Assembly (NCBI RefSeq): GCF_022045235.1
Contig: NW_027266266.1
Coordinates: forward strand, 47,554,001 to 47,618,000
Reading direction: 5' to 3'
DNA length: 64,000 nt
Origin: Haliotis cracherodii
Taxonomy: Eukaryota
Part shown: positions 382 to 63,844 of the stretch, one piece after another
Layout of the letters: each line of letters begins with the position of its first letter
How positions within the stretch are numbered: the stretch's first letter is position 1
The notes under the pieces: generated by a model
Database searches by the model: none
Seen by the model: the letters and a program-made list of their open reading frames with translations, nothing else
What the model was told of the DNA's origin: nothing
Position numbers and translations under genes: made by a program

Positions 382-1825
382 CGTTGGTGTCGAACCTTCC
401 GACAAACTCGATCAGCAGCTCCAGGTCGGAGATGTAGCGGTCTTTGTTGGTGTCCATGTCGACCATGACCATTTCGATGACGTTGTCTGCAGTCAGCTTC
501 TCAGCGTTGGAGTGGATGCAGTGCTGTATTGTGCCCTGCCTGTTGACGCAGGAAGAGGAAGATGTCATACCTTGACCACACCGTTACCATCGTTACCACA
601 GTATGACCACGCTGTTACCATCGTTACTAAAGCATGACCACGCCGTTACTATCGTTACTACAGTATGACCACGCCGTTACTATCGTTACTACAGTGTGAC
701 AACATCGTTACCACAGCCTGACCACGCCGTAACCATCGTTACTATAGTATGACCACACCGTTACTCATCGTTACTACAGTATGACCACATTGTTACCCCA
801 GTATGACCACACCGTTACCATCGTTACAAGAGTTTGACCACACCGTTACCATCGTTACTACAGTATGAACACATTGTTACCCCAGTATGACCACACCGTT
901 ACCATGGTTACAAAAGTACGACCAAATCGTTACCAGAGTATGACCAAATCGTTACCAGAGTATGACCACACAGTTACCATCGTTACCATAATATGACCAC
1001 ACCGTTACCATCGTTACTACAGTATGACAACATTGTTACCACAGTATGACTACACCGTAACCACAGTATGACCACGCCGTTACCATCGTTACTACAGTAT
1101 GACCACATTGTTACCCCAGTATGACTACACCCTTTCCTCAGCATGACCACCCGATCCATCTAGTCACCACTTACGACAAGCATGGTTTTCTGGAGACCTA
1201 TTCTAACCCGGAATCCCCACTGGAATATTATTCTCCAAGGTATCAAATCTACAATATTATACCTCCAAATATAAGGGAGCTAAATTTCAATATAATTTGT
1301 ATATTGTAGCCATATACATGATATAGCCAGAACATTGGGTTTCAAATTATATTTGTACAATATCATACCCCCAAATATAAAACACAACAGTTTCTCTTCT
1401 TGAACATCATCGTGATGCATCTGTTTGGTTGGGCATGCCTTATATATTTTAAGTGTAAGCTAATGTTGTGCTGTCAGGTTGACGGACTTTTTAAGAAAGA
1501 TGAAGGGCATCCTGATGGAATAGTTTGTTAATCGTTTCAGTATATATCCTCCTCCTATGGTGCGTTCAATCAGAAACATCGCCCCGATTGTTTCTAGGTT
1601 TGTCAGCACCATACCCGTGCTCGTGGGTTTCACCGAAGTGGTAAACGTCTGAGACCTGCATCACTTCGGGCTTTCCTCCCACATTAGCTGACACGCCGTG
1701 ATATGACTTGAATACTGTTAAAAGCGGCGTTAAACCCAACTCGCTCATTCACTCAATAAGAAACAGGCCAAGGTCACTCACCCGTAGGCCGACGCTGCGA
1801 GGAGAAGGACGCCGAACAAGAACAT
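382..1825 (-). CDS. Gene 1 (partial, runs off the left edge): secreted EF-hand Ca-binding protein. Exon 1 1782-1825, exon 2 382-539
   Basis: Exon 1 reads MFLFGVLLLAASAYG with a GG|GTGAGT donor. Exon 2 follows a tcaacag acceptor and reads QGTIQHCIHSNAEKLTADNVIEMVMVDMDTNKDRYISDLELLIEFVGRFDTN, ending G|GTAATC. Intron phases (2, 1) match genes 2-6. Confidence 0.88.
570..1150. repeat. Irregular minisatellite (core cagtatgaccacaccgttaccatcgttacta) in gene 1 intron 1
   Basis: Directly visible tandem units of about 20-31 bp starting ~30 nt upstream of the exon 2 acceptor. Confidence 0.9.
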
Positions 1826-9057: not shown

Positions 9058-12000
9058 TCAGGCAGTGTTTTGATGTGAGAATGGCACACAGTCTTGATAC
9101 AGCTGAAACAACATGGCGACAATACACATCCTGCACATTATCTACCAAATGTATTGCGTCCTGGGTTACGCCGACTGTAACAATCTTCCCTGAGTACGCA
9201 TCCTCTGTATCTCCAGGGTTCGCATTTCGGTAAACCTATACTAACTCCTGGATCCAAATTCTCGCGATCTCAAATTACCTGTCCTTGATTTTCATAAGCC
9301 AATCTGATTTGTTACGCTACTCAGTCCAACGGACCAATCAAAATGCGAGTTAGAAAACAGCTGCAATGTTGGGTTGGCGATAGCATCGACATGGCTGCCA
9401 GTCCCATTGATTACGAAAGAATTGGCGAGAAATTCAACATTGAAATGCTACTGACTCGCAAAAGAAAGCCCTCGCAATTTTTTTAATGGAAACAGAGACC
9501 ATATACCGGTATATGGTCTCTGATGGAAAGGACGTCTCCCTGCCCAACTGGCGGTCACTTTGGTTTCTAGGCAATACGAGTTACCTGCCTTGCCCATTTC
9601 CTTTTGCCTTGATTGGTCGGTAAAAAGGTAATGGAACTCAAGGGCAGGTAATTTGAGATTGCGAGAACCATGGGATTTGGATCCAAAGCTGTACTGGAGC
9701 ATCACTTCTGGGGCGTGATTCCCAAAAGATGACAAAGTAGTGAAAATTATATGAATAGATCACCGAAAATCAGTGATGACACTAGGCTCTGGCCAAGGGT
9801 TAGGCATACCCTGCCCTACCGGTAGCACCCGCCACTCACGCAGTTAACATAAGAAACTAAGTGTTTTGTTGCCTGACTCCCCACAGCCATACGATCCAGT
9901 CTTATTTGGGGATTAAGCAGTCCTTGGAATGAACGCCCATTGATTACATTTAATGATCCAATTTTCTGCATCACAACTTTCTTCCATAAACCGTGAATTA
10001 TGAGATAATCATGATGTATTTCCTGATTTGCGGGTGTTTTTTTTACCCTTTCTTCGCCAACTGGACTTGACACGCTTATACCCAAGCACGGGTATGGTGG
10101 TGACAGACCTAGAAGCGTAATCTTGGCGACCCGGGATTCGAACCCACAAGTATAGATTTCTGGCGTCCCCAAAGGATGCGCAGCAAATTGCGTCGCCTTA
10201 GAGGACTGGGCGACCCGTCTCCCAAATTACACTGAAGAATTCAGGCTGTGTGTTGATACTCACGTGAGTCAAATATATAGTGAACTCAACGTCCGACACT
10301 TTGCCGTCATCTGGAAAGAAACAACAGGCAAATCACGAATAAGCACCAAACTTAAGTAGAGTGGATACCATGACATAGATAGACCCAGGTAGTAGATGGT
10401 AGTAATAAACACACGACAAAGATAACACCTTGATGTAGACGGTAGTCATAGAAACGGAGGATAACACCTTGATGTAGACGGTAGTCATAGAAACGGAGGA
10501 TAGCACGACATAGATAACATCTTGATGTAGAAGGTAGGGTAGTCATAGAAACGGAGGATAGCACGACATAGATAACACTTTGATGTGAACGGTGGTCATA
10601 GAAACGGAGGATAACACCTTGCTGTAGGCAGTAGTCATAGAAACGGAGGATAGCACGACATAGATAACACCTTAAGGTAGACGGTAGTCATAGAAACGGG
10701 GGATAACACGTCCTTGATAACACATGGATGAATATGTAGTCATAGAAGTTATATCTACTGGAAGGAGCTATTTTAATTCACTTTTGAAGGACTACCAGCG
10801 TCTCCAGTGAACAATATTAATTTTGTGTAAAACCTGACATTAAATATTATTTTCATTTATTTACTGGAAGACTACTCACGGTCCAGGTCCATAATGGCCT
10901 GGAGAGGAACGAAGTCAAACAGTCCGAGGAAATCATCGTTCGTTTGGTCCAGATGCTGGAAGATGTAGTCGGCAAAGTCCGGAACGTCACGGTATAACGC
11001 GTGCCATTTTGCAACAAACTCTCTCCTTGTGATCATACTGTCCCCTGGGGGTAGAAAGTAAATTCATGAATATATATGGTTCCATGTCATATCCTGTTTG
11101 TTAACCAGGACAGGGCGGTCGGGTAGCCTAGTGGTTAAAGCGTTCGCTCGTCACGCCGAAGACCCGGGTTCGAATCCCGACATGGGTACAATGTGTGAAG
11201 GCCATTTCTGGTGTCCCCCGCCGTGATATTGCTGTAATATTGCTAAAAAGCGGCGTAAAACCATACTCACTCACTCAACCAGGACAATTGTTTGTTTGTT
11301 GTTAATCGCCGCACTAAGCAATATTCCAGCTATATGACGGCGGTCTGGACCGGACAATCCACTGCTTGACACCATGAGCATCGATCCACGCAATTGGGAT
11401 TCGATGCAAGCATCAACCAAGTCAGCGCGCCTGATCACCCGATCCCGTTAGTCGCCTCTAACGACAAGCATAGTCGCCTCTTACGGATAGCATGGGTTGC
11501 TGAAGACCAAATCACGGTGTGTCAACTTGAGGTGTTATGAAAGCCTTGGCCAACTGGGACACACTTGCCCCTCTATTGACTATGGCATTGACTTCAGACG
11601 AGTACATATCAGTAAAGATCGGCTGGAAAACAAATAATGATTAGGACATATCATCTTTTATATCTCAAAAAGATACCAGTTTAGTGTTATTATACACTAC
11701 AGTATCAGTTGCAAAGCCGTTCAGTATCCACAAGCAACAGCAATATAGGTTGTTTTTTGTCTTAATTTCTGTTGAAGAAAGACAAGTTCTATGGATGAAC
11801 AACTTCTTTATTACAATTAGTGCGACATTTCGGTGTAGATCCTAACACCTTTATCAAGCAAGTGATGTTCATCCATAGAACTTGTCTTTCTTCATCACAC
11901 CAACTTCTAAATGCCACTGAAAGAACTGTTATCACTGAATGTTGGCGACCACATTTGATACCACAGGAATTCAAAATTCTGATTAAAACAATTGTGTCTT

Positions 12001-14676
12001 AAACTATCTACACCCTCCTTATGTTTTGTTCAGAGTGGGCTGTGTGATGGTAAAAGGCACACGAGTACAATATTTTAAGCAAAACTTCTGAATCGTGTAG
12101 TCAATAAAGATATCCATATATTTACCATTTGTATCAAACTTGCCAATAAACTCAATAATGACCTCAAGGGGTGAGAGTTCATGGTCGCCGTTAATGTCGG
12201 CGTCAGCAACGACCTTCTCGATGACGTTGTCAGCTGCCAGACTGTCCACGTTGCTGTGGATGCAGTGTTGTGGCCCCTGACTGTGGAGAGGAGATATGTA
12301 CAGACATGTAGACCTGGACATACTTCAAAATATGGCATCATGTTGCAATCTCAGTAAGATCAGATCTAAGTTAAAGATCCGCTCAACAAAGATCTGAGGA
12401 CACCCCATTACGGGTTACGCCAGAACGACCTTCCATCCGGCCAATCAGAGCCTCGCTCACCAGATCATGACAGTGACAGTCGGAATGCGTTTTCTAATCA
12501 TGCAGCCTCGAAACGGTCAACACGGGGTATTCCGAACTACAGCTACGGGCTTTAACGAATCCGTCAAAATCATCTCTCGCGTTAATGGAATTAATATTTA
12601 AACGGAAAGGAGGTACTGCCATACAATCTAGGCCATCTAATGGACATTTCAGAAGGTTCTTTTGTTCAGTTTTCGAATTTCGAATCGAGAACTTTGTCAA
12701 AATACTTTTCAAAGCCTTGTCGCCAGTTTGAAACTAGTGTTGTATTAGTTGCTTTCTAATTGGCTAATGTCGATTTCATGTTAGACATTTCATTGGTCGG
12801 TTAAAGTTCGCGAATGGTCGTTCTGACGCGATCTGTAATGGGATGTCAAAAGATCTTTGTTTTGCGGTAGTGCATTAAGTGCAGTATATGACATCATGCA
12901 TGATGCATTATATTAGTAGTGTATGTAGTGCAGTATGTAAAAACATGCATGACGCTTTATATTAGGCTTGGATGTAGGACAGTGTATGAAAGCATGCATG
13001 ACGCATTATCATATACTGATTCTGCTTATCTTACACTTGTTATATACTTGATTTCATTCATTGTTTGTGTATGGGGCTGTAATTTCCAGGCTCGACCCTA
13101 GCGCCACCAGTGGCTGTTACGAGTTATGTCCCTTCAATGTCCCTCCTACTGACCAATCTGATTCCATCTCTCATATCACTTGCATTTACTTTAAACAAAA
13201 TGGCGGCGCCCAGTCAAGACGATCTGATTTGTTTGTTTGTTGTTTAACGCCGCACAATATTCCAGCTATATGACGGTGGTCTGTAAATAATCGAGTCTGG
13301 ACCAGACAATCCAGTGATTGACATCATGAGCATTGATCCACGCAATTGGGATCAATAACATGCATCAGCCAAGTCAGCGAGCCTAACCACCCGATCCCGT
13401 TAGCTGCCTCTTAGTATAGTCGCCTTTTACGACAAGCATTGCTGCAGACCCATTCTACCCCGGATCTTCACGGGTCCAGGACGATCTGATTGATAATCAA
13501 GATCTATATTGTAATAAAACGGGTCTTACCCCGCGAAGTGCACCTTGATTAAAAGCTTGAAAAGTTTGCAAAATACCCGTCGACCGAAATCAGCACGTTG
13601 AAATCCATGTCGCTTACGAACCGGATGTGTAGTTCGATTTTGATTGGACTATGCATAGACTGGTTAGTCCAGCCGAAAAGTAACTCCATAATTACAGCCT
13701 AGTTCCGCAAAGGTGGAAACTTCCTTGCCTCGGGAAGATGGCAACGCGCGGAGAGCCAGTGGTCTGCTGACATGCTGGAAACTGGCATCAGTCAGCGTGC
13801 AGTCGCCAAAAAGTTCAATGTTTCTCAGTCTGTGATTAGTAGACTATAGAACGGGTACCAACAAATCCAAAATGTTGACGATGGACCCCGTTTAGGGCGT
13901 CCAAGGTCAACAACAGGAGCACAAGATCGATTGATCCAAAAGCAGGCTGTACGAAATCGAGCTCAATCAACAGCAAATCAAATTGCTGCAAACTTTTATT
14001 AGGCTACTGGAGTATGAATTACAGGTCAGACGATTAGACATCGTCTCCATACAGTTCATGTCCATGCTGGACGGCCACGTGTTGTGCCGCCCCCTACAAA
14101 TCGCCATATTGCCAACACACGGCAATGGTGTACACAACGTCGAAACTTGGGTAATCGTCGCTGGTTCCGATTCAGTCTGCACTTCCTTTGAAGGCGCGGT
14201 CGTATCAAGCGACATCGAAGTGAACGTCAAGCCAATATCAACCTGAAGGTGGCCAGGCCCTATAAGAGGAGTGGTAGCGACTCCCTCAAATCGCCATCAA
14301 AAGATTTCACTATTTCGCAATTCCTTATGTGAGACTTAGAACGTGCGAATCAACCATTTAACCTACTAATTCACACCTGTCGTTAAATGCTTCATACACA
14401 CGTCCCCCGTGAGAATTCCGGACAAGAATATTGCAGGCTCGGGGACTTGGTTGAGAGCGTGTCATCGAACCCAAACGGTGTGCGGATCGTTCTTCATAAT
14501 ATCGATCACTTGGGTGTCTGGTTCAGACTCAATTATTTACAGGCCGTCAAATAGCTGGAATATTGCAAACAACAAACACACAAAAAACACATTTACATAA
14601 TATGCTCATTATAAACCTAATTAACCACTCACCCGTACACGCCAACAGCGAGGAGAAGCGTTATAGCGAGGAACAT
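9058..14676 (-). CDS. Gene 2: secreted four-EF-hand protein, 151 aa. Exons 14633-14676, 12126-12280, 10880-11044, 10264-10310, 9058-9102
   Basis: All introns are GT-AG and the frame is continuous: MFLAITLLLAVGVYG QGPQHCIHSNVDSLAADNVIEKVVADADINGDHELSPLEVIIEFIGKFDTN GDSMITRREFVAKWHALYRDVPDFADYIFQHLDQTNDDFLGLFDFVPLQAIMDLD HDGKVSDVEFTIYLTH LYQDCVPFSHQNTA*. AATAAA at 8977-8982. Confidence 0.92.
10370..10745. repeat. Minisatellite (39-54 bp units, core ggtagtcatagaaacggaggata) in gene 2 intron 3
   Basis: Directly visible. Confidence 0.9.
11773..11950. mobile_element. Penelope-like pseudo-LTR inverted repeat with a degenerate hammerhead-like motif
   Basis: 29-bp inverted arms at 11773-11801 and 11866-11894. 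Minus strand reads TGC-TTGATAAA-GGTGT(taggatct)ACACC-GAAATGTC-GCA...AATAAA. Confidence 0.55.
12346..12870. mobile_element. Long-TIR MITE, older copy of the 44800-45299 element
   Basis: Colinear similarity over about 500 bp, including both TIR regions. Confidence 0.8.
13770..14245 (+). mobile_element. Decayed Tc1-like transposase N-terminal region in gene 2 intron 1
   Basis: Reads MLETGISQRAVAKKFNVSQSVISRL*...GPRLGRPRSTTGAQDRLI (paired-like HTH plus GRPR), then frameshifted TIRHRLH..HAGRPRVVP. Confidence 0.85.
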
Positions 14677-22029: not shown

Positions 22030-25000
22030 TCAGACGGGAGCCTGGTGGGTCTGGACACACTCGTTGTAAGCCTGGAACAAGACCGGAAGTGAGTGAGTGT
22101 GTTAAAACTTAACGTCGCATCGGCATTATGTCAGCCATATGGCGACGAGAACAAATAAATATCTACCCAGTGAGTCATGAATACAAAGTTATATTGGAAA
22201 CCAAATCTGTCAAACGTATTTGGGCACAAAAATATTATTCATACAGTATAAAATACGGGCTACATGCAAGACCGGAAGTGTTGGGCTTAAGACCCACCGA
22301 TTTCGGCAGCTGTATATCATCATCGTCGTCGTCGTCGTCCTCGTTTATTATTATTATTATTATTATTATTACGTACGTTTTCCAGGAAAATGGTGAACTC
22401 CACGTCAGTGATCTTGCCGTCATCTGTAAAGGGAGACAACTATGTCATTCCTATTAATGCATAACATATTCATGACACCGTGGACCCTTGGACAGTTTGG
22501 GGCAGTCAGGTAGCCTCGTGGTTAAAGCCACGAGCACGGGTATTGTGCTGACAAACCTAGAAACATAATTGGGGCGAACCGGGATTCGAACCCACAATCA
22601 TAGGTTTCTGGCGTGCCCAAGGGACACAACTCTGCACAGCGAATTGCGGCGCCTTAGACGAATGGGCCACCCGTGCCCCCTGTAGCTGAGACACACTGTA
22701 TGTGGTCCTGGGTTTGGTGTCCATTCTTCGTCTGAAGATAAAATGTCCTTTGTGCACTTAAGGACATGTTTCTACGTATTTTTGTTATTAGGGTATTTGA
22801 AGTTTCATATTTTGAAGTACACTCTTTAAAAAAAGAAACTCACAGGTAGTATGTAGTTCACTGAACCTGACTACAAAAACAATCCGGTATATAGATTATA
22901 TATTATGTTATTGGAAAATGTTGGTAGCCTGATATTCGACAAACGGTGCGTCAAAACGTAGCCATTGTCGATTTGCAATCATGTCTTTCACACTTGTTAA
23001 GAAAATGTCATGGAGGAAAACAAAAGCAAAATGCACGTGCCGAGGAGATGCAGAGCCGTGCTGCTGCCCGGGGCGGTCACACGAGATACTGAGTTCAGCG
23101 CAACCTTGTGGCTTTATGTGACATGACAATGAACAGTTTTCAATGCCTTTGTACAACGACAACATGTGACTATAGAGCTCCAAAATTTAATATTTGTATC
23201 TATGATATTAAATTAAATATATCGACTTTATTAGGTACAATAAATTTACAAAAAATCTACCTGTGTGTTGTTGTTTTTTTTAACAGTGTACATCATGAAA
23301 CTTTAGGTGGTTTATATGAATTTAAAGGTTCCTAATTATTGCGTAATTTTATTGAATCAAAACACAATGGCGTCCGTGAAGGGGAGATAACTAATGAAAA
23401 CTGTAAAACTGTACCGTTAAAACTGGGATAAAAAAACTAATTATCAAAGCCCTAATATATCACATCAAAATGCCCAGGACTCACGGTTGATGTCGACCTT
23501 GCCCTTCAGTCCCATCACGTCAAACAGGCCAAGGCTGTCGTCGCCGTTGGTGTCGAACTTGGTGAAGATGAAGGCGGCGAAATCGGGAGCGTCGTGGTAG
23601 GTGGCGTGCCATTGTGTAACAAACTCAGACTTGGAGATGGACAGACTACCTGTGAGAGAGAATCGGACGACTGTTAGTGAGAGAGTTGAAGGCCACTTTG
23701 AAGAGTATGTCGGTTGTATCATGTTTGTTTGTTTTTTTGTTTTTTAACGCCGCAATATTCCAGCTATATGACGGCGGTCTGTAAATAATCGAGTCAGGAT
23801 CGGACAATCCAGTGATTGACATCATGAGCATCGATCCACGCAATTGGGATACGATGACATGCATCAACCAAGTCAGCGAGCCTGACCAACCGATCCTGTC
23901 AGTCGCCTCTTACGACAAGCATAGTCGTCTAACTACTATGTTAACTACTGTGGTGAACTCCACGAGCACTGGTATGGAGTTGACAACTCCATCAACACAG
24001 GGATGGTGCTAACACACCCAGGAACACGAGTATGGTGTTGACAAACCCATCAACACGGATATGGTGAAACGTTGAAAAACATGTCATGCGATTAAAATAG
24101 GTTCAACAAAGAATTTTCAATGTGTATTGAACATAACCTACCGTCGTGATCGAAGTTTGTAACGAACTCGTTGAGGATTTCCATGTCTTCGACGATGCCG
24201 TCATTGTTGGAGTCCATGTCTTTGAGTGCCTGTTGGACGACGACGTCGGCGGTGTGTTTCATGGTGTTGCTGTGGATGCACTTTGGGTTGCTCAGCTGGC
24301 TGCAAGAGTTTCATGGTGTTATACTTTAGCTTTACCAAGCCGGCTGGAAGAGTTACATGGTGTTATACTTTGGCTGTATCAAGCTCGCTGGAAGAGTTAC
24401 ACGATGTCATACTTTAGCTTTACCAAGCCGGCTGGAAGAGTTACATGGTGTTATACTTTGGTTGTATCAAGCTGGCTGGAAGAGTTACATGGTGTTATAC
24501 TTTGGCTGTATCAAGCTCGCTGGAAGAGTTACATGGTGTTATACTTTAGCTTTACCAAGCCGGCTGGAAGAGTTAAATGGTGTTATACTTTGGTTGTATC
24601 AAGCTGGCTGGAAGAGTTACATGGTGTTATACTTTGGCTGTATCAAGCTGACTGGAAGAGTTACATGGTGTTATACTTTGGCTGTATCAAGCTGGCTGGA
24701 AGAGTTAAATGGTGTTATACTTTGGTTGTATCAAGCTGGCTGGAAGAGTTACAAAATGTTTTCCTTTGCTTGTATTAAGCTGTCTGGATGAATTTCACAA
24801 TGATTTACTTTGGTTGTATTAAGCTGTCTGGAAGAGTTACATATCGTTTTACTTTAGTTGTATTATGCTGGCCGGAAGAGTTGAAATATGTTTTACTTTA
24901 GTTGTATTAAGCTGTCTGGAAGAGTTACACCATGTTTTAGTTTGGTTGTATCAAGCCTGCTGGAAGAGTGACAAAATGTTTTCCTTTGCTTGTAATAAGC

Positions 25001-44638: not shown

Positions 44639-47600
44639 CTAACTTCCAGGAACACAATTCTTGTAGATCTGAAACCAGGAACACATATATGAAGATAAAT
44701 TCTAGGTTAATTAAATATTTTTAATTGTATGTGTGTTTATTTATGGTAAAGTATATGAAGAAATGCGGGAGTCTGTCTATACAGAAAGCCCTACAAACCC
44801 AATCTCATTAAAATCAGATCTTAGTTCTCGCTATCGCTAAACAAAGATCTGAGGACATCCCATTAAGGGTCACGTCAGAATGACCTTTCATCCAACCAAT
44901 CAGAGCCTCGCTTACCAGATCATGAAAGTGACAGTCGGAATGTGTTTTCTAATCATGCAACCACGAAATATTTAACACAGGGTATTCCGAACGACAGTTA
45001 CGGGTTTTATGATTATACACATACAATCTATAAGTTTCCAGAATGTTCTTCTCATCAGTTTTAATTTTTTGTAATCGAGAATACGTCAAAATATGTTTCG
45101 AAGCGTAGTCGCCAGTTTGAAACTAGTGTCGTAAAGCTCGAGGAATCTGCCTTCTGATTGGCTAATGTCGATTTCTTGTCAGTCATTTCATTGGTCGGTC
45201 AAAATTCGCGAAAGGTCGTTCTGACGTGACCCGTAATGGGATGTCCTCAGATCTTTGTTTAGCGGTAGCGAGAACTAAGATCTGATTTTAATGAGATTGC
45301 CACAAACCAGTCCACATGATAACATCATTTAAGAAGATATTTCTGTTGTTGATGAAGCCGAATATGTCATCAAAAGTAATTTGCTCTGAACCAGACAAAC
45401 CAGTGATCGATATTGTGAGCGATGTTCATAAACTATTTGTGACTAATCTATGACGTCATTGACGTCCTTATGACGTTATTTTGTACTGAGAGCATGTTGT
45501 TACTCACGTCGAGCATAAATGTTTGGAACTCGGCGTTAGACAATTTACCGTCACCTGAAACATAAGGGTGTACTTTGAACTTGGGGTGAGATCGGGTGAT
45601 CGAGTGGGTGAGGGAGTGTTTGTCGATGGCGCACTCAACAGTAGTCCAGCCATATCACGGCTTTATTAAAAGCTCGTGCTCGTGGGTTTCAAGTTGTAAA
45701 GTCTGAGACCTTCATCACTTCGGGTTTTTCCTCCCACGTTAAACACTGGGTGAAAAGCTAGATATATTTTCTTATCGGCGTAAAAAGATTAATATGGATG
45801 TTAAGTTACTATTTCATCGCTCAGCATATAATCCGACTTACCTTTCATTGCTAAAAGAATCATGTCGGTTATCACAAGCTTCACTTTTGCCTGCACATCC
45901 GAACACGTCATATTCCACTTGATAGTGGTGGCTATACTTACAGACGTAGACAAGAAACCAAGTACGATTCACGTTTGTTTGCTTGTTTAACGTCGCACTC
46001 GGCAATACTCCAGCTATATGACGGCCTGTAATTAGTCCAGTTTAGGCAGACAATCCAGTGATCGATATTGTGAGCTACGAACCTCGCCGTCAGGGTATGC
46101 TGACACGCAGTCAACCAAGCCACGGAACCTGACAACCCGATCCAATACGTCGGCATCGGTGGCTGATATTCAGTTGTAACCCGGAATCCCCACGGGGTCA
46201 GTGCGATTCAACCTGGTGGTGATTTTGTTTGTTTGTTGTTTAACGCCGCACTCAGCAATATTCCAGCTATATGACGGCGATCTGTAAATAATCGAGTGTT
46301 GACCTGACAATCCAGTAATTGACATCATGAGCATCTATCAACGCATTGGTGATACGATGACATGTATCAACCAAGTCAGCGAGCCTGACCACCCGATCCC
46401 GTTGGTCGCCTCTTACGGCAAGCATGGGTTGCTGAAGACCTATTCTAACCCGGATATTCACGGGTCGTATCTGTGGTGAGGATCTTTGGCTGCAATAGTT
46501 TCTAACAGTGGATGAAGTGGCCACAACTCTCACCGTTGCTGTCAATCTCTGCTTGAAGACCGAGGAAGTCGGCAGATGTTAGTTTCAGGTCATCGTTCTT
46601 GTCGAAGTGGTGGAAGAGATAGATGGCGAAGTCGCGCCCGTCATGGTACCGCAAGATCCACTGAATCACAAATTCCGCCTCCGAGATCTCACTGTTGTCT
46701 GTGAATTTGTGTCATCATTATAGAGATTGCTGCACTAGTACCCGTTAGATACCGTTTATATCACAACCAGTGTGTTTCAAGACGTATCTAACCACCCAAA
46801 CGTTTTATTTGTCTGTTTTTCGTCACTGATCTGAATCATACAATTATCTTCTCAGTGGCGAGGAGCCAACAGTACGTACATTGTACATGGTGCCACATTG
46901 CATTTGCTCCGGGCATCCATTAAACAATAAATAAAAAAATATATTTCAGTACGTTCTGGATCAAATTGTTATTCCAAGATGACCCCATTGGTCTTATCTC
47001 AGAAGAAGGTGGGGACACTGAAATTATATTTGTTTGATAGTTGTTCAACTCCGCACGTATGACGGCTGCCTATAAATATTAAAATTTTAAAAGACAAAAT
47101 GAATAATGCATTTCCCCTGCATCCCCGATCCGCCAGCACGTGCTATACATTCACACACCACATGCTTACACAACAATCACCTCCGGGATGTTACATTGAC
47201 ACTCTAACAAGCACAACAAAGAACTACACAACCATCAACTCAAAGAGATTACATTGCCATTCTAAAATGCACAACAAAGAACTACACAACCATCAACTCA
47301 AAGAGATTACATTGCCATTCTAAAATGCACAACAAAGAACTACACAACCATCAACTCAAAGAGATTACATTGCCATTCTAAAATGCACAACAAAGAACAA
47401 CACAACCATAAACTCAAAGAGATTACATTGCCATTCTAAAATGCACAACAAAGAACTACACAACCATCAACTCAAAGAGATTACAATGCCATTCTAAAAT
47501 GCACAACAAAGAACATCACAACCATCAACTCAAAGAGATTACATTGCCATTCTAAAATGCACAACGAAGAACTACACAACCATCAACTCAAAGAGATTAC

Positions 47601-50466
47601 ATTGCCATTCTAAAATGCACAACAAAGAACAACACAACCATCAACTCAAAGAGATTACATTGCCATTCTAAAATGCACAACAAAGAACTACACAACCATC
47701 AACTCAAAGAGATTACATTGCCATTCTAAAATGCACAACAAAGAACTACACAACCATCAACTCAAAGAGATTACATTGCCATTCTAAAATGCACAACAAA
47801 GAACAACACAACCATCAACTCAAAGAGATTACATTGCCATTCTAAAATGCACAACAAAGAACAACACAACCATCAACTCAAAGAGATTACATTGCCATTC
47901 TAAAATGCACAACAAAGAACTACACAACCATCAACTCAAAGAGATTACATTGCCATTCTAAAATGCACAACAAAGAACAACACAACCATCAACTCAAAGA
48001 GATTACATTGCCATTCTAAAATGCACAACAAAGAACTACACAACCATCAACTCGAAGACTTTACGTTGACATTGTGAAGTGCACAACAGGAAACAACACA
48101 ACCATCAACTCATAGATTTTACGTTGACATTGTGAAGTGCACAACAGGAAACTACACGACCATCAACTCGAAGAGTTTACGTTGCCATCCTAATATGCAC
48201 AATGCACGTTACATATCAACAAACGTGTTTGCACACTAACATTCTACACAACCGTCAACCCGAAGATTTTACGTTTGCATTCTTAAGTTCACATCACAGA
48301 ACTACACCACCGTCAACCCGAAGATTTTACGTTTGCATTCTTAAGTTCACATCACAGAACTACACAGCCGTCAACCCGAAGATTTTATGTTTGCATACCT
48401 AACTTCACGTAGGAGAAAAACACAATCATCAACTCGAAAATATTTACATTCTCAAATTAAAATCAAAGAACTACATGACTATCAACTCAAAGATTTTACG
48501 TTTACTTCTTGAATTCACATCAACGAACTACGCAACCGTCAACCCGAAGATTTTACGTCTACATTAGTAAATCACACCCCAGAACTATGCAACCACTAAC
48601 CCGAAGATTTTAGGCTTACATTTGCAATGCACAAAATAGCCACTCAACCATCAACACGAAAGCTTTAGGTTTAAATTCTTAAATGTAAACTACACAGATG
48701 TTTGCACAGGAAAGATTAACACAACTACCAACTAGCAGATTTACGTTCCCATTAACAAACACATCAATGAACGACACAGCTGTCACATGGAAGATGTTAC
48801 GTTTACGTTCACACGTGCAGATGGGCATCAGTGTGTAGCATCTTTACGGGTGTTGGGAAGATTGCAGTATGTTATATGTGTTCAGATGATAAACAATGCG
48901 TACTGTCACTGTCGTATCTTGTGACGAACTCGGAAACGACTTCACTCTGCTCCAATGTGCCGTCGCCATTTTTGTCCATGTCATTGATGATGTTGCGGAC
49001 GGCGAGGTAAGGGGAGAAATTAAGGCTGGTTTGGATACAACCCTGCTGGCGGAGATTGTGAGCAAGGCTGGCGAAGAATCATATAAACCTTTTAGACAAA
49101 AGACACAGATTTATAATGACGGAATATTGAAGACTTAATCAGAGAGAAATGTCTTTTGTGAAACTGACTCAACATCATCCAATTTCCGAAACACCACCAT
49201 GTGTCACTCAACCACACAGTGTGACAGATCCGAGTCTCCATCACGTGTCACACAACCATACTGTGCTACAGATCCGAGTCTCCACCACGTGTCACTCAAC
49301 CACACAGTGCAAGAGATCCGAGTCTCCATCACGTGTCACTCAAACAAACAGTGCTACAGATCCCAGTCTATATCACGTGTAACACAACCATACTGTGCTA
49401 CAGATCCAAGTCTATATCACGTGTCACACAACCACACAGTACTACAGATCCGAGTCTATATCACGTGTCACACAACCACACAGTACTACAGATCTGAGTC
49501 TATATCACGTGTCACACAACCATACTGTGCTACAGATCCGAGTCTTCATCACGTGTCACTTAACCACACAGTGCAAGAGATCCGAGTCTCCATCACGTGT
49601 CACTCAAACACACAGTGCTACAGATCCCAGTCTATATCACGTGTCACACAACCATACTGTGCTACAGATCCAAGTCTATATCACGTGTCACACAACCACA
49701 CAGTACTACAGATCCGAGTCTATATCACGTGTCACACAACCACACAGTACTACAGATCCGAGTCTATATCACGTGTTACACAACCATACTGTGCTACAGA
49801 TCCGAGTCTTCATCACGTGTCACTTAACCACACAGTGCTACAGATCCGAGTCTTCATGACGTTTCACTTAACCACACAGTGCTACAGATCCGAGTCTATA
49901 TCACGTGTCACACAACCACACAGTACTACAGATCCGAGTCTATATCACGTGTCACACAACCATACTGTGCTACAGATCCGAGTCTTCATCACGTGTCACT
50001 TAACCACACAGTGCTACAGATCCGAGTCTATATCACGTGTCACACAACCATACAGTGCTACAGATCCCAGTCTCCATCACGTGTCTCTCATCTCAACCAT
50101 ACTGTGCTGCAGATCCGAGACTCCATCACGTGTCACTCAACCACACAGTACTACAGATCCGAGTCTATATCACGTGTCACACAACCATACGGTGCTACAG
50201 ATCCGAGTCTTCATCACGTGTCACTCAACCACACAGTGCTACAGATCCGCGACTCAACCACCTACCACTCAATCTTACAGTGCTTGCCTTTGCATGTGTT
50301 TATGACGGATGCCCCCGGTTGAGGGATACGAGATACCGTCCCCATTTTTGCGAACACCTGGTGTCATCCCCAGTTAACAATGATTCATATACACGTGTTC
50401 ATGATTGACTCACCCATGCACTGCTGCAGATCCGAGAAGTAGAAAGACAAGGCGGAGATCAGGCAT
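44639..50466 (-). CDS. Gene 5: secreted four-EF-hand protein, 152 aa. Exons 50414-50466, 48904-49067, 46534-46698, 45508-45554, 44639-44668
   Basis: MPDLRLVFLLLGSAAVHG LAHNLRQQGCIQTSLNFSPYLAVRNIINDMDKNGDGTLEQSEVVSEFVTRYDSD NNSEISEAEFVIQWILRYHDGRDFAIYLFHHFDKNDDLKLTSADFLGLQAEIDSN GDGKLSNAEFQTFMLD IYKNCVPGS*. AATAAA at 44626-44631. Confidence 0.92.
44800..45299. mobile_element. MITE with ~90-bp TIRs and a probable 9-bp TSD (Mutator-like) in gene 5 intron 4
   Basis: CAATCTCATTAAAATCAGATCTTAGTTCTCGCTA... at both ends in inverted orientation. Flanks are ctacaaacc and ccacaaacc. Confidence 0.85.
46224..46466 (-). mobile_element. Non-tRNA SINE-like retroposon, family D. Other copies at about 8012-8190(+), 11288-11510(-), 13228-13477(-), 20686-20946(+), 23722-23930(-), 30211-30432(+), 30964-31142(+), 35874-36040(-), 44220-44430(+), 45975-46197(-), 61500-61737(-)
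   Basis: Dispersed ~245-bp repeat, often 5'-truncated, with an (AAAC)n tail and the same 3' end as families A-C. No A/B boxes in the head. Confidence 0.85.
47210..48800. repeat. 58-bp minisatellite in gene 5 intron 2; homogeneous to ~48050, then degenerate
   Basis: Unit gaactacacaaccatcaactcaaagagattacattgccattctaaaatgcacaacaaa. Confidence 0.95.
49198..50260. repeat. 44-bp minisatellite in gene 5 intron 1
   Basis: Unit acgtgtcacacaaccatactgtgctacagatccgagtctatatc. Confidence 0.95.
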
Positions 50467-51700: not shown

Positions 51701-53291
51701 TAGGGAAGTAGGGAAGTCTAATTCTGCATAATTCCTATCATAATTACTATGTATACAAAAAAGAGAAGCACGGTTGACGATATTCGGCACAGAATAGGCC
51801 CTTGGGGCATCTTGTCGGAATAGATCGCTAGTTTGTCATATTTGTCACAAGAACCCAATCGGAAATCAATATCGCTGACTCGACAGATTGTGTGTATTCG
51901 TGCCCCGATTGTGTGGATCATTGCGTGTGCTGTCAGTCACTGGTTTGCCTGGTCCGCCTTCTAGCTCGGACATAACAGATTGCTGCATTTACTCACTCAC
52001 TCACTCATTCGCACAGGATATACCAAATAACTCCCGGTGTGATTATCTCACAATATGCATATTGCAAAGACGGCAGCCATATTTGTTTTCATTTTTGGAA
52101 GATGCCTTGAACACAACAGGTTCAGTTCTAATATGTTATCCTACAACAGTTGTACCAGTTATGGCTCAATCAGTTTACCCGTTTAGGAAATGCCAACGGA
52201 ATCGAAGTGAAGTCAACAATGCCCCTGCCGACTGATAACGCGCAACACACACACACACACACACACTCACTCACTCACTCACACAAACGCACACACATGC
52301 ACACGCACACACGCACGCAAACACCCACGCCCGCCCGCACGCACGCATAATCCTGTTTATGAGTATTGGCGGTGTGATAGCCTTGAGAGTAAAGCGTTAG
52401 CTCATCACGCCGAAAAACCGGGTTCGATTCCCCACATGGATACAACGCCTGAAGCCCATTTCTGGTGTCCGGCGCCGTGATATTTCAGGAATACTACCAA
52501 AAGTGTCGTCAACCTTACTCAGTATAACGGAGAACATGAACCACGTGAGTCATAACGATAAGTTATCTTTGTGAAACAGTTTCAGGTTTTTTATACTAGG
52601 TGAGCTAAATATTGTATTTCTCTCAATATACTTTTGATCACAACTTACGAATCTATACACAAGAGCATGGCGAGCTGAGCAATGATAGTGTTACTGTGTG
52701 CATTACCTTGTTCACAGAGGACCACACGGCTGACGGCGGTAATCCTTCTAAACAAAATATTACATATATTGCCTGACAAATGTTGTTTCCCATGCATAGA
52801 CATTTTTAACGGTTTAGATTTAATTGAGCCATTTCAAGCTGATAAACTGCAAGGCATGACTTAAGAAACATAATGAATTTCTTAACATCGGAATAAGAAT
52901 TTTCTATATAAATAATTTCTGCACAAAATGAAATTACATGACAGTCGAACTGCGACCTGTACTGGTATTTTCTAAAAACACAGATTTACATATACATGTT
53001 AATACGACCCACATTTCTCTACATAAATATAAGACCGCCTCCGTGGTCCAGTGGTAGAGTGTGTATGGTCTGGAGAGCGGAAGGTCCGGGTTCGGTCGAT
53101 AAAAGATGGTACTTGTTGTTACCCAAACATTGGAGGGATAAAACAAAGACTTGTCGGTTGGAGTCAGTATACTGTGTCTAAGTGGGGTATTCATGTTAAA
53201 CTGCGGCATGATATTTCAGTTCGGCATTAGTCCGGATAAGTACTAGCAGTCAGTCACACTTTTTCTAGGATGCGGTTTTAAACAACAAACA

Positions 53292-56200: not shown

Positions 56201-56368
56201 CCTCATTTCTCTATTTGTACATGTCTATGTGGCCCTCATTTCTCCATTTGTACATGTCTATATGCCCCTCATTTCTCTATTTGTACATGTCTATGTGGCC
56301 TTCATTTCTCTATTTGTACATGTCTATATGGCCCTCATTTCTCCATTTGTACATGTCTATGTGGCCCA
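53292..56368. repeat. 33-bp minisatellite, ~3.1 kb (~93 units)
   Basis: Unit gtacatgtctatgtggccctcatttctctattt. It has few plus-strand stops, which explains the 1051-aa and 674-aa pseudo-ORFs. Confidence 0.97.
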
Positions 56369-57113
56369 ATATCCGCTTCCATAAACCTTTGTGAAAGCTT
56401 TGCTGAGGTCTTGAATGTTGAAACAACTTTGAGCAAGATTCGTGTGCCACTTTTTAAAATCTTCGATAAATGATCATACTTGATTGTACCTTGATTGAAA
56501 CGTAGACATCTAAGGTTGGAGCTGCTGGAATATTATTCAAAATAAAGGTAAAATTGACTATAGTTGAAAGTTGAAATCATTCCTCTTCTCATACATGTCA
56601 CTTTGAAACTTTAGATCTAAATATGAAACTGATGAGGCGGTTTCAGTAATCTTTTGTACTTTTGGGTAAAAAAGTGGAAGGGATTTGGCTATTTGACCAT
56701 TGTTGAACAATATCAGACCATTGATAGAACGGTAGAAACTAACACTTTTAGTCCACTAGTCCTCATAATGATAACATATAGCAAAACCCTTAAAACTGGG
56801 AAATTTCTTCTCGTCGTTATGATTCCGTAACTATTGGGCAGTTTGGCAAGGACTACAGGACTTTTGCCAATTTCTAATGCTATGATATGCCCGACGCTTA
56901 AGTTAAACTTCTTGCTGAATGCCCTTGTTTTGACCTTGACAATCTCAGCAGACATCTCGATTCCAATGCATTAAGAAACACATCAGCAAGAAGGGGGACA
57001 CGGTTGGTGCGCATGGGGATGCCTACTTCCTGCCTAAATGTCTTACCCCCAAATTATACCTAAAGGAAGAGGAAACACGGCGTGATAGGAAGTGTTTTTA
57101 TTAAATAGCGGTT

Positions 57114-60100
57114 CTACCGCCCATGATGAGTAACACAGTTTGTGTAGAGCTGAAATGTGAAATGTGAAACAGTTAGTATATCTCCAAGAAAGGGTGGGAG
57201 ACACAGACAGTCGCCCACTTTGTCGTCATAAACATCGAAACACTTATTATATATACATATTTCATAGCAATAAAAAAAAATCGATATGTTATTCAATCAT
57301 TACATCCCCCAACCTCAATGAAGAAATCTATACAATGTCATCATAAATTCCTATCTGTACATTTCCCTCCATATTAATACATCGATACTATGGCGGGATA
57401 ATGAGGCAGCATCGCTGCTTCCCTTTCTTGACATGAAGAGTACGTTTTGAATCTAAAATAAATAATAGTTCACGTGACTTACGTTGGTCAAATAGGCCTG
57501 GAACTCTGAGACTGAGACGTTACCATCACCTGTAAGACATTATCAGGAACCATGTCTAAGATGTATAGAGATATATGATATCCTAATCATCACGGGACTC
57601 GCAATATGTCAGTGAGGGAACGTTCACCAGAAATTTCAGGAGGGGAATTGTGACCAATTGCAATGGTCTTAAGACGAAATATCTTAATTTCATGTTAAGA
57701 AGGAATGTCAGACTGCCACCCAAATCCAGATTATTAAGCACATACCATCAATGTCAAGGGACAACTCCAGAGCGGCGATGTCACCGTCGGTCAGTTTCAA
57801 GTCGTCGTTTATGTCGAAGTGGTGGAAGAGGTAGCTGGCGAAGTCGTGTTCGTCGTGGTAGTGCTGATGCCACTGCTTTACAAACTCATCCTCGGAAATC
57901 TCGCCGTTACCTGTAACCATATCAACACCATCGACATACGTTGGACTTATACACTGGCTATAGCTCACCTTCACGAAGTCATTCGTTCGTCCCTCAACCT
58001 GATCTGTGAACGTCATTGTCTTTGGCTTTGAGCAAGTAGAATTGCCATTGTGAAGTCTTCATAAAATATGTCAATGAACACATAATCGTATCAGAGTGGG
58101 TGAGTGAGTATGGGTTTACGCCACTTCTAGCAATATTCGTGCAGTATCACGGCGGGAGACACCTGAAATGGGCTTCACACATTGTACCCATGTCGGGAAT
58201 CGAACCTGGGTCTTCGGCGTGACGAGCGAACGCTTTAACCACTAGGCTACCCCACCACCCTTGTTGTATCAGAACGATGGGCGGCATAGGTTTAGGACAT
58301 ATCGAACGCTTACATTTTTATCCACTATAGGTGAGCTTCTGTACCTCTGGTACTATGGGACGTTATATATCACCGCTGCCTGGACGATACAAGAATAACC
58401 GACACGACTGTTCATGAATATACAAAACTAACAAAAGCATGTCGATCTGACTTCTATATCGGTCATACAGTGACACCTCATTGGTCTGGACAGGACCGTT
58501 CCCAGTGAAGACGCCAGATTAAAGAGTGTCTACATAAATGTAGACGTACCCGCTAGTAAACATCCGGATGACATCACTCGGCCAAATCACACAGTCTATT
58601 CCCATTTAGTCAGCTCATAAGACAAGCATGGGATACTTGGATTTAGTTAGAGACCTTTTTCTCTGCTTCTAAGCACACCATTTCAATGTCTGAGAAAGGG
58701 GAAGTCGAATAATTTAATTCATTCACAATGCAATTTTTCAGGACATTCCTATTTCGTAAATATGAGGAAGTAATATTGTTTATCAGCATTATCGAAATTG
58801 AATAAATATTTTAAAATAAACAAACCCAGCTTCCTCCCAACCCCCTACTCCAACCGCCACCCCCATCCCTCCCCCATTTCGAACATTAAATTGTCTCTCC
58901 TTTACCGTCATGGTCGTATTTGGTGACGAATTCAGCCATGACTTCAGCCTGTGTCACAGCGCCGTCGCCATCTTTCTCCATGTCGACGATGACGCTGGCG
59001 ATCACCTGGTTTGCCGTCATCTGCTGGTGGTTGTTATGGATACAGGAGTGCACGTGACCGTGACCGTGACCATGACCTTGCCTGAAGGTAGACGATGTAT
59101 GATTGTCTCTGGCAATGACAGATACATATAGAACATATAGATACACGAGTTGATTGATAGCTTCTGAGCCTCACATCGAAAGACTTGACCAAAAGACATT
59201 AACATATAGTTTTCAACATACATCCCATTCCACATTGAAACATTTTGCCAACGATATTGGAAGGATTCTATCCCAGCTTCTCTTGGCTGTCCAAAATGTG
59301 TTCCACAGCTGATATGACGTCATTGTTCGAGCCGATATTGGTTCTTTATGTTTAGGAACAGATGAAAGTGTGAAGGCGCCATCCCAGGAGAATAGGTAGG
59401 CGCTGAAGGGCTGTGGTCATAACAGTAATTGATTTGTGCACTGGTGCATTGTTATGATGGAGGAGCGCACCTATTCTACAGCTTCATATGTCTCTTAGAC
59501 TTAATTTCCCGTAATTGACTCACAGGTGCAATATCATATGCTCCGTTTATTGTTTGATCGTTTGGAAGATAGCCCACCATGATGGCGCCCTCGGCATCCC
59601 AGAAAATGGGGGTCATAACTTTTCCCCCTGATGGGACAGTCATTTCCATGCTTCCAATGGTCTGATTGTTGGTTGGACTTATGCTGAAGGAGGTGAACCA
59701 AGGTTTTATAGATTGTCAAAATTGTTGCAAGAACCTTTCTGGATCAGTTTCAAACAGAGATACATTATCTTGAGACACGTTGTGCCTGGTGTGTTTTTAG
59801 ATCAGCTATAACATCCGACGAGCTGATAATTTCTTCATTGACAAATTATCTGTGATAATGGATTCGACTCTCTCCTGGAAAATGCTATTGAACTAACCGT
59901 ATGACGCTCATTCATTCGCCAGTCGGCCATCATCATATCGTGGATTCTCGGGATCATTTCTGGGTTTGCTGACGTGACGGGCCTTTCAGGACGGGAAACT
60001 CCTACCTCGTTTCGAATGCATATAGAGGGGCTTCCTTCCCTGGTGTTGTACTCATATCTTCATGGGTGTTTTCCAGCAGCTCCAGCCTTTGGTGTTTACA

Positions 60101-61452
60101 TTTCGTAACTTTTGAGATACAATTTAAGTATAATTCTTCTACCAAGATTTCAAAGAGCGTCATACGACACTTGCTCAGAAGTTGCTTGATCAAGGTTACA
60201 ACATTCAAGGCCTCGGTAAAGCTTTCAGGTTTATGGTAGACATGTGGAGGACATTTCAAACTTTGAAGCATCCGTGACAAAAATGATGTACCATACGTTC
60301 CCATGTTCCAAGGAACAGTTGACTTGCCTTTGCATGTGTTGGGTGGCGGGTGCCACCGGTGGGGCAGTATACGCTCACAGTTTCGAGAACACCTGGTATC
60401 GTTACTATTTGATAGTAATTCATAACCACATGCTCATGATATAGTCGGAATTGTACAATCGAGTCTGCTTTATGGAGAGATTTCTACTGGATATGGAAAG
60501 GGGTTTGTCGCTTTATTTTTAGGTTTGAGCCCTTTTTCTACAACTACTTGATCACTGTACGTTCCTTAAGTTTGTTCATTTTCCAAAGGTCACAGACCCC
60601 TGAATACTTTACTAAATATTTATGTGACTTGTCACAGTGAAACAATTTGCTTAGTGGAGATGCTTCTATGACATCCCACAGATGACACCCTTACCTTGTC
60701 AGCTTCAGGTTAACCTCTTTGGTCATGTGGACAAGGCGTCCGACCTCTGCTCAGAAGGTCCGTGGTTCCAATCCCATCACGGGACTCGGAAATCTTATGG
60801 CCGCTACATTGGTGCCCAACATGGAGCTGAGCGCGTTCACATTAAATTTGAGCAAAATAAGTCTCAGTACCCTACTATGCGGTCCGGGACGTGCCTTCTG
60901 TTGACGGGAAAGTATGGAGCAGGGCGTGGTGTCATCCCACAGATGACATCCTTACCTTGTCAGCTTGCTGACGGGGTTAACCTCTTTAGTCATGTGGACA
61001 AGGCGTCCGACCGATGCGCAGAAGGTCCGTGGTTCGAATCCAATCACGGGACTCGGAAATTTATGCCCGCTACACCAGATTTCGCAGTTCCTTCTATGTT
61101 AGGCGCAGAACTTATCAACGTGAGTGGGCAGCTACTGATCTACTCCACCCTTAGCAACAATCCAGCCATATATCTGGCAGACATGAAAACTGAAATCCGA
61201 ATCTTCATTTAGACGGGCGGCTGCTTCAACCACTGGGCTATCCCAATGCTCCATCATAATGTTTTATAGTAACTGGCCTAATATTTGATATAATTGCCTC
61301 ATACAATTTTGAAATGTTGGACATTGTAGTATATATAATTCACCCAAATATCGACACATTGCCGACTACAACAGTTTGGTTTTGCACATTATACCATGGA
61401 ACACTCACCCATATACTGACGCAGCTCCGAGTAGAAGAAGGAATACTGTCAT
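57114..61452 (-). CDS. Gene 6: His-rich secreted four-EF-hand protein, 155 aa. Exons 61409-61452, 58906-59081, 57746-57910, 57483-57529, 57114-57149
   Basis: MTVFLLLLGAASVYG QGHGHGHGHVHSCIHNNHQQMTANQVIASVIVDMEKDGDGAVTQAEVMAEFVTKYDHD GNGEISEDEFVKQWHQHYHDEHDFASYLFHHFDINDDLKLTDGDIAALELSLDID GDGNVSVSEFQAYLTN LYTNCVTHHGR*. AATAAA at 57097-57102. Confidence 0.93.
60669..61074 (+). mobile_element. Miniature non-autonomous LTR retrotransposon (TRIM) with tRNA-like LTRs (Helenus-like)
   Basis: Direct repeats TG...CA at 60669-60808 and 60930-61074. PBS TGGTGCCCAACATGGAGC at 60810-60827. Purine-rich tract just before LTR2. A and B boxes inside each LTR. No TSD seen. Confidence 0.8.
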
Positions 61453-63811: not shown

Positions 63812-63844
63812 TCACCCATGAAAGCTGACACAGTTTTTGTAGAG
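63812..63844 (-). CDS. Gene 7 (partial): terminal exon LYKNCVSFHG* of a further paralogue lying beyond the right edge
   Basis: acatttcag|CTCTACAAAAACTGTGT is nearly identical to the gene 6 exon 5 junction. TGA stop; ATTAAA at 63796-63801. Confidence 0.8.
   Translation of the reverse strand, partial: LYKNCVSFHG

Follow-up and report, generated by a model that had tools for sequence, protein, structure and literature searches.

How are four EF-hands accommodated in one small protein when neighboring calcium-binding loops lie too close together for the calmodulin arrangement? The question is raised by an array of genes in the abalone Haliotis cracherodii, five complete members of which lie in the 64,000-nucleotide stretch analyzed here (hereafter the window; C3:47554001-47618000, contig NW_027266266.1, in a genome of 1.18 Gb). 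The principal subject is gene E, on the minus strand, whose product resembles a protein of Haliotis rufescens (P0001) closely enough that the latter was used for structure prediction. The predicted structure, the spacing of the loops, and naturally occurring cysteine pairs in relatives make it very probable that the hands are arranged in the manner of bacterial lanmodulin, with EF1 paired to EF4, EF2 paired to EF3, and a single helix shared by each adjacent couple.

Gene E and the encoded proteins

Six-frame scans and splice-site searches yielded exons that join at GT-AG boundaries into five complete five-exon minus-strand genes, designated A to E; the window also holds the start of a sixth gene (F) and exon 5 of a seventh. 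Exon 1 of gene E (14633..14676) supplies the start codon and a signal-peptide-like hydrophobic stretch matching the N-terminus of P0001. Exon 2 (12126..12280) encodes the N-terminal arm with Cys21 (codon 12262-12264), helix A, loop 1 (12163-12198), the shared helix B, and the first residues of loop 2. Exon 3 (10880..11044, 165 nt) completes loop 2 and goes on to encode helices C and D, loop 3 (10914-10949) ending in Asp12, the shared helix E, and the start of loop 4. Loop 4 is completed in exon 4 (10264..10310), which also encodes most of helix F, and the coding part of exon 5 (9058..9102) supplies the end of helix F, Tyr-x-x-Cys142 (Cys142 codon, 9088-9090), and the stop codon. An earlier interpretation, made from the nucleotide sequence without database searches (the sequence-only reading), had delimited the feature at 9058-12280, a span that contains exons 2 to 5 but leaves out exon 1 and with it the signal peptide.

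Gene E is spliced as modeled. All four introns are bridged, with CT..AC ends, in assembled contigs of public runs presumed to be RNA; three of the joints occur in all four runs and the exon 1-2 joint (12280-14633) in three of the four. None of the matching runs is listed as RNA, and their samples bear coded names. The spliced protein differs from P0001 at 5 of 151 positions (146/151 identical), and exon 3 is 98% identical. High-copy interspersed repeats occupy parts of the introns (11113-11500 and 13080-13700), to which thousands of public-run contigs align.

In all five complete genes the loop starts are 21, 35, and 20 residues apart, leaving 9, 23, and 8 residues between successive loops; none of 20,000 shuffled mature chains contained four loops. 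Each protein has two cysteines, one in a C-I-H/Q motif before EF1 and one in Y-x-x-C after EF4, and loop 3 ends in Asp in all five, as it does in each of the 18 copies of exon 3 identified within 384 kb surrounding the window. The spacing, the exact cysteine count, and the invariable Asp12 had been described by the sequence-only reading, and all three descriptions hold. Exon 3 is 165 nt long in all five genes and is flanked by introns of phase 1 that interrupt loops 2 and 4 at position 4; because it comprises exactly one 55-residue unit, it fits an internal duplication, which agrees with the pseudo-two-fold repeat proposed earlier.

The proteins begin with a hydrophobic, signal-peptide-like leader and are acidic, with a net negative charge (21-25 Asp plus Glu versus 5-10 Lys plus Arg). 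Endoplasmic reticulum (ER)-resident multi-EF-hand proteins of the CREC type carry a C-terminal KDEL/HDEF-type retention signal; none was present at the C-termini of the five gene products.

Predicted fold and pairing of the EF-hands

AlphaFold2, run on P0001 with 35 sequences, produced five models with a predicted local distance difference test score (pLDDT) of 83-87, the best at 87 with a predicted template modeling score of 0.78. After the leader the model has six helices (31-42, 52-63, 73-84, 88-98, 108-118, and 128-141). Loop 1 (43-54) and loop 2 (64-75) are bridged by helix 52-63, which begins within the last residues of the former, and loop 3 (99-110) and loop 4 (119-130) by helix 108-118, so that each of these helices is predicted to serve two hands. 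A calmodulin lobe (2w73, 80-147) aligned with the model over 68 residues at 1.6 Å in the range 30-137. Since this range holds 108 residues, about 40 must have been skipped, corresponding to the segment from loop 2 to loop 3, and EF1 and EF4 would thus form one canonical pair. Most top structural matches show a skip of about 40 residues, and 8th8_I aligned 73 residues with positions 50-123, the EF2-EF3 pair. The EF1/EF4 pairing, which the sequence-only reading had suggested checking with AlphaFold, is supported by the model, together with the EF2-EF3 pair and the shared helices it had proposed.

A second line of evidence does not depend on the model. The position-7 residues of paired EF-hand loops are near enough to bond. 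Among 75 single-domain relatives with four loops, cysteines at this position occur jointly in loops 1 and 4 in all five rows that have a loop 1 Cys, all from one Mytilus cluster, and in loops 2 and 3 in six of the seven rows that have a loop 2 Cys. They never occur in these 75 proteins as loops 1 and 2, 3 and 4, 1 and 3, or 2 and 4.

Searches with the P0001 model gave no whole-domain match to a solved chain (Foldseek, E 0.001) and no match in a viral structure library at E 0.001. The best structural-alignment Z scores among the matches listed were 7.3 and 8.3, the latter for a match covering 75 of 151 residues. ALG-2 aligned at a root mean square deviation (rmsd) of 15.5 Å in Foldseek; penta-EF-hand proteins likewise share helices.

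The cysteine pair

An intrachain disulfide between Cys21 and Cys142 is likely, to judge from its conservation. Both residues are kept in all 18 aligned members of the branch that contains the window genes, at paralog identities as low as 35%; Asp86 and Tyr139 are also invariant there, and Asn25 is present in 16 of 18. The two ends of the chain should lie near each other, because EF1 and EF4 fit onto a calmodulin lobe, in which the first helix meets the last. Lone beta bridges occur in the P0001 model at Asn25 and at Asp86; together with the conservation of both residues, they suggest that the N-terminal arm also touches the turn between helices C and D.

What such a disulfide would do is indicated by the relatives. 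A tree was built from 61 rows (77 candidates minus 16 near-duplicates and fragments, with groups labeled by hand), and the 19 rows with the cysteine pair form one side of a single branch (support 90/95, not starred), all gastropod where named. The other 42 rows do not have this pair. In a count of 61 rows with both ends present, 18 had both cysteines, 31 neither, 10 the N-side Cys only, and 2 the C-side Cys only, the 10 including Cys residues at the end of the signal peptide and Littorina rows with a second Cys further out. P0017, an eight-loop oyster protein with no cysteine, nevertheless pairs its hands in the same way: its model (15 sequences, pLDDT 87) contains an EF1+EF4 pair, with 2rob aligned over 70 of 70 residues at 2.3 Å in the range 25-133. 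The sequence-only reading had cast the disulfide as the closer of the fold, replacing a missing EF4-to-EF1 linker. The 42 rows and P0017 do not support this role and point instead to a lineage-specific brace, and the idea of a closing linker is further undermined by the real connection from EF4 to EF5 in the P0017 model, which is one continuous helix (122-145). A ring closure of the eight-loop relatives (EF4-EF5 and EF8-EF1) was also considered and rejected, as it is absent from the P0017 model.

Other lineage-specific cysteine pairs were seen in the family, linking helix C and the C-terminal tail in clams (P0088, P0135-P0138, and P0141), helix C and helix D in Lineus (P0042), and a different N-to-C combination in Littorina (P0109/P0252).

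Distribution of the family

A search of 1.84 billion representative sequences (E 0.001) returned 121 matches, thirty of which were looked up by source. The sources comprise Haliotis, Lottia, Patella, Gigantopelta, Pomacea, Littorina, Biomphalaria, oysters, Mytilus, a scallop, clams, Sinanodonta, a chiton, Lingula, Lineus, and Watersipora, with a few matches carrying no source name; Owenia is a further named source outside these thirty. By their sequences, the window genes belong to a wide lophotrochozoan family whose members are labeled "uncharacterized" or IMSP5-like in databases. A length and score filter reduced 267 proteins to 80, of which 75 had four loops; the five dropped were fragments and one protein with an inserted loop. 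The spacing, determined within preset search ranges, was 21/35/20 in 36 of these 75 and 20/35/20 in 19, and loop 3 ended in Asp in 66.

A PDB sequence search with P0001 gave no match under E 0.001. The family profile retrieved only generic calmodulin-type sequences from the PDB, Pfam EF-hand matches were found for family proteins, and the closest clusters in the ESM Atlas were mollusc EF-hand proteins without models. One relative, P0035 (97 amino acids), keeps both cysteines but is missing precisely the exon-3 unit, leaving two loops; as exon 3 is frame-preserving, this would reflect either exon skipping or a gene-model error.

Proposed function and alternatives

The function of the abalone proteins is inferred. 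In the mechanism that we favor, helices B and E would each act as the exit helix of one hand and the entry helix of the next, so that the segment linking the two hands of a canonical EF1-EF4 pair would itself contain a canonical EF2-EF3 pair. The N-terminal arm would serve as a latch, fastened to the end of helix F by Cys21-Cys142 and to the C-D turn by the predicted Asn25-Asp86 bridge, and this latch would keep closed the clefts that in calmodulin open to receive targets. Seawater and hemolymph contain millimolar calcium. At such extracellular concentrations EF-hand chemistry would keep the canonical loops 1, 2, and 4 filled, which makes switching unlikely. Loop 3, with Asp12 and Gly9, is probably a weak or Mg-shared site, because Asp12 reportedly shifts selectivity toward Mg (PMC5983762). 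We therefore read the products, with a probability of roughly 60%, as secreted acidic proteins of lanmodulin fold that would be constitutively calcium-loaded in extracellular material such as mucus or shell secretions and would not act as calmodulin-type switches. A role as calcium buffer or matrix component seems only slightly better than an even bet.

Several points weigh against this reading. The structure is wholly predicted, and the prediction used the sequence of P0001 (146/151 identical) in place of the spliced gene E protein. The aligner reports only the first and last aligned residues, so that the skipped segment was deduced by arithmetic. Each pattern of paired loop cysteines may represent one evolutionary event, in which case the support amounts to two or three events and not eleven. 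The structural match to lanmodulin is weak (8fns, E 0.031, rmsd 5.2 Å), and the IMSP5-like genes of the papers cited below may not belong to the window branch. An array of 20 copies with paralogs 35-48% identical also suggests more than bulk buffering.

One alternative is that the nested fold is right but its purpose is carriage or recognition, calcium being structural only: the latched helices would form a cavity that houses a small hydrophobic ligand, or paralogs would have different partners in chemical signaling or defense. The aromatic core is invariant (F59, F76, W80, F90, and Y139), relatives keep gaining lineage-specific cysteine pairs, and much of the array consists of a unit of about 36 kb with two genes, recently expanded at 93-98% identity beside seven divergent genes. 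Conserved aromatics are to be expected in any EF-hand core, however, and the fold searches gave no ligand-binding match. We regard this alternative as unlikely. Ranked by function, calcium-loaded secretion or matrix comes before ligand carriage or recognition, and both come before the binding of lanthanides or transition metals. The third of these, in which a lanmodulin-like activity or the His-rich ends would chelate Cu/Zn or trivalent ions, lanthanides included, in secretions, is decidedly improbable. It draws on the topology held in common with lanmodulin, on the signal peptide that exported lanmodulins also have, on the His-rich ends (16 His in the gene A protein, and oyster relatives), and on a possible ortholog, a Mytilus gene named IMSP5 that is reported as upregulated under copper in larvae (PMC8696127). 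Against it stand the rarity of Pro at loop position 2 (absent from all 20 loops in the window and seen in 2 of 75 relatives), a position 9 that is mostly Ser/Thr and not the Asp/Glu of lanmodulins, the failure of P0001 and the low score of P0005 (24 bits, cut-off 135) with the lanmodulin profile, and the proposed disulfide latch, which would speak against a disorder-to-order switch of the kind that goes with picomolar lanthanide affinity in lanmodulin. More speculative still is the idea of a true functional counterpart of lanmodulin in animals, namely, a lophotrochozoan-wide set of secreted nested chelators, possibly derived from bacterial short-long-short EF-hand proteins, that would prefer lanthanides or other trivalent or transition metals over calcium, with metal-tuned, disulfide-latched paralogs in abalone; we give it little credence.

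Two further alternatives concern the fold. The monomer model might mislead, either because hands pair across chains by domain swapping or because the two cysteines link chains into gel or matrix polymers; pairing of EF-hands from different chains, and dimerization by way of Cys pairs, are both reported for EF-hand proteins (PMC5983762). This is very improbable given the agreement of all five models (pLDDT 83-87), the joint retention of both cysteines in all 19 rows of a single branch, and the modeling of tandem eight-loop relatives as two self-contained domains. A calmodulin-like topology with EF1-EF2 and EF3-EF4 pairs is hardly credible. Four canonical-looking loops, Pfam EF-hand matches, and calmodulins as the top PDB sequence matches of the family profile recommend it, yet the 9 and 8 residues between those loops leave room for one helix, Foldseek alignments with whole calmodulin have an rmsd of 14-21 Å and a TM-score of 0.2, and the pattern of cysteine pairs excludes loops 1 with 2 and 3 with 4.

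The gene array

The array numbers about 20 copies, with 20 exon-2 copies alongside the 18 of exon 3. The motif C-I-H/Q/F is found in all 20 exon-2 copies, and 20 exon-5 copies plus one spare have Y-x-x-C, after four of 25 scanned candidates were excluded for want of a corresponding gene. About 13 of the genes lie in repeats of the two-gene unit (C3:47623000-47864000). Two copies, with exon 2 at 47801163 and 47727136, gave no exon-3 match and may be broken or mis-assembled. Family members beyond the array occur at C3:23291637-23306438 and C13:18029732-18032761, comprising a cluster that resembles P0018 and an ortholog of P0102, which is IMSP5-like.

Gene A (57114..61452), like its complete neighbors a five-exon minus-strand gene, is 41% identical to gene E and has a His-rich N-terminal arm, a His-Gly repeat (59044-59081, minus strand) standing immediately before the first Cys. 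Runs of His occupy the same position in several of the array genes that lie to the right, the C-termini of oyster and limpet relatives are rich in His, and these stretches form a possible Zn/Cu site. Gene B (44639..50466) is 35% identical to gene E. Its exon 1 was taken as 50414-50466, and the candidate 52052-52092, the source of a third Cys, was dropped; the gene B row in the relatives comparison, tree, alignment, and loop counts used the dropped exon, which affects only the N-terminal 14 residues. Gene C (30822..35675) is 48% identical to gene E, with part of its splice joints present in public contigs, and gene D (22030..25237) is 81% identical to gene C. A second exon-5-like copy (30578-30619, minus strand), with Y-x-x-C and its own acceptor, lies 235 bases behind exon 5 of gene C and is a possible alternative C-terminus. 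Exons 1 and 2 of gene F (382..1825, minus strand) are in the window, its exons 3-5 lying just to the left, and exon 5 of the next array gene (63812..63844, minus strand) is present at the other end, its remaining exons lying to the right of the window.

Outside the EF-hand family, an open reading frame (ORF) fragment at 26858-27202 (minus strand) resembles what we take to be the catalytic region of a Tc1/mariner transposase, and tandem DNA repeats in introns and spacers give long ORFs at 33702-34563, 36767-37799, 49199-50305, and 53318-56473.

Comparison with known systems

The fused, nested arrangement of lanmodulin is generally regarded as a curiosity of bacteria. Should the model be correct, a large family of secreted animal proteins, spanning gastropods, bivalves, a chiton, Lingula, a nemertean, an annelid, and a bryozoan, uses lanmodulin pairing with a longer middle linker. 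A fold would thereby be supplied for many of the "uncharacterized" and "IMSP5-like" proteins of mollusc mantle and shell studies, and the abalone proteins would offer naturally disulfide-braced scaffolds for comparing calcium with rare-earth selectivity.

Records named IMSP5-like, among them P0102 of Haliotis rufescens, P0258 of Biomphalaria, and P0255 of Lingula, share short-long-short spacing and a profile match with the window genes. P0102 matched P0001 at E 2.5e-4 and scored 108 bits on a family profile that included it, and P0045 (E 4.6e-7) and P0012 (E 1.1e-13) cluster with IMSP5-like records. The comparison covered records named after the clam protein IMSP5. The named rows do not have the Cys pair of N-terminal arm and helix F, and some have eight loops, whereas the window genes belong to a gastropod branch with the pair present and 21/35/20 spacing. 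Published reports place IMSP5-like genes, which may lie outside the window branch, in oyster mantle epithelial cells (10.64898/2026.05.15.723513), at low level in mantle transcriptomes (PMC8933548, PMC6641155), and, as a copper-induced gene, in Mytilus larvae (PMC8696127). EF-hand proteins, among them the CaBP of Pomacea eggshell (PMC6573481), are also mentioned in papers on snail eggshell, mucus, and immune transcriptomes (PMC6573481, PMC11940790, PMC3299671), with no sequence there tied to this family.

Each pair of the abalone model, EF1+EF4 and EF2+EF3, superposes on one calmodulin lobe, the best over the 68 residues described above. The pairs are nested with shared helices in the model and arranged in series in calmodulin; calmodulin-like sensors have about 36 residues between the starts of paired loops, compared with 21 for EF1-EF2 and 20 for EF3-EF4 here, where the model has a single helix.

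The closest parallel is lanmodulin. The nested pairing is not new, a point that the sequence-only reading missed: lanmodulins are described as having 12-13 residues between neighboring hands, Pro2 in one loop or more, and EF1-EF4 and EF2-EF3 pairs (PMC10232371), and two other reports agree and note one helix linking EF1 to EF2 (PMC11879702, PMC13738343). We found no report tying the abalone family to lanmodulin or to a shared-helix fold in the open-licence literature, to which the search was confined; papers under subscription or supplements that are not open could hold relevant material. Among the Foldseek matches listed, the query TM-score was highest for the lanmodulin of Hansschlegelia quercus (8fns; 0.35, with 0.46 for the target); lanmodulin was absent among the 50 matches listed in either VIA-align result, which excludes nothing. 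With the lanmodulin hidden Markov model (HMM; NCBIfam NF053806, cut-off 135 bits), P0001 gave no match at E 0.01 and P0073 scored 18.6 bits. Three metagenomic proteins (P0146, P0162, and P0197), matched by the family profile, scored between lanmodulin and the abalone family at 37-83 bits; with hydrophobic leaders and 24/28/24 or 24/32/24 spacing, they are possible intermediates between the two.

Lanmodulin, a small exported protein known from Methylorubrum extorquens and H. quercus, and the abalone proteins, small and probably secreted, both have four EF-hands. Lanmodulin and the abalone model also have the same pairs, with one helix from EF1 to EF2 and one from EF3 to EF4 (PMC10232371, PMC13738343). 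They differ in the spacers, which are 9/23/8 in all five abalone genes and 12-13 throughout in lanmodulin; in Pro2, seen in at least one lanmodulin loop and in the abalone family only in loop 4 of two relatives (PMC10232371 for lanmodulin in both features); and in position 9, which is Ser/Thr/Gly in the abalone family and Asp/Glu in lanmodulins. In the abalone model EF2 and EF3 are separated by a complete hairpin of two helices, making six helices, whereas lanmodulin is a three-helix bundle, and Asp12 in loop 3, the Cys pair, and an animal origin belong to the abalone proteins only. Since they depart from lanmodulin in spacing, in Pro2, and in HMM score, the abalone proteins are best described as lanmodulin-like in topology and not as members of the lanmodulin family.

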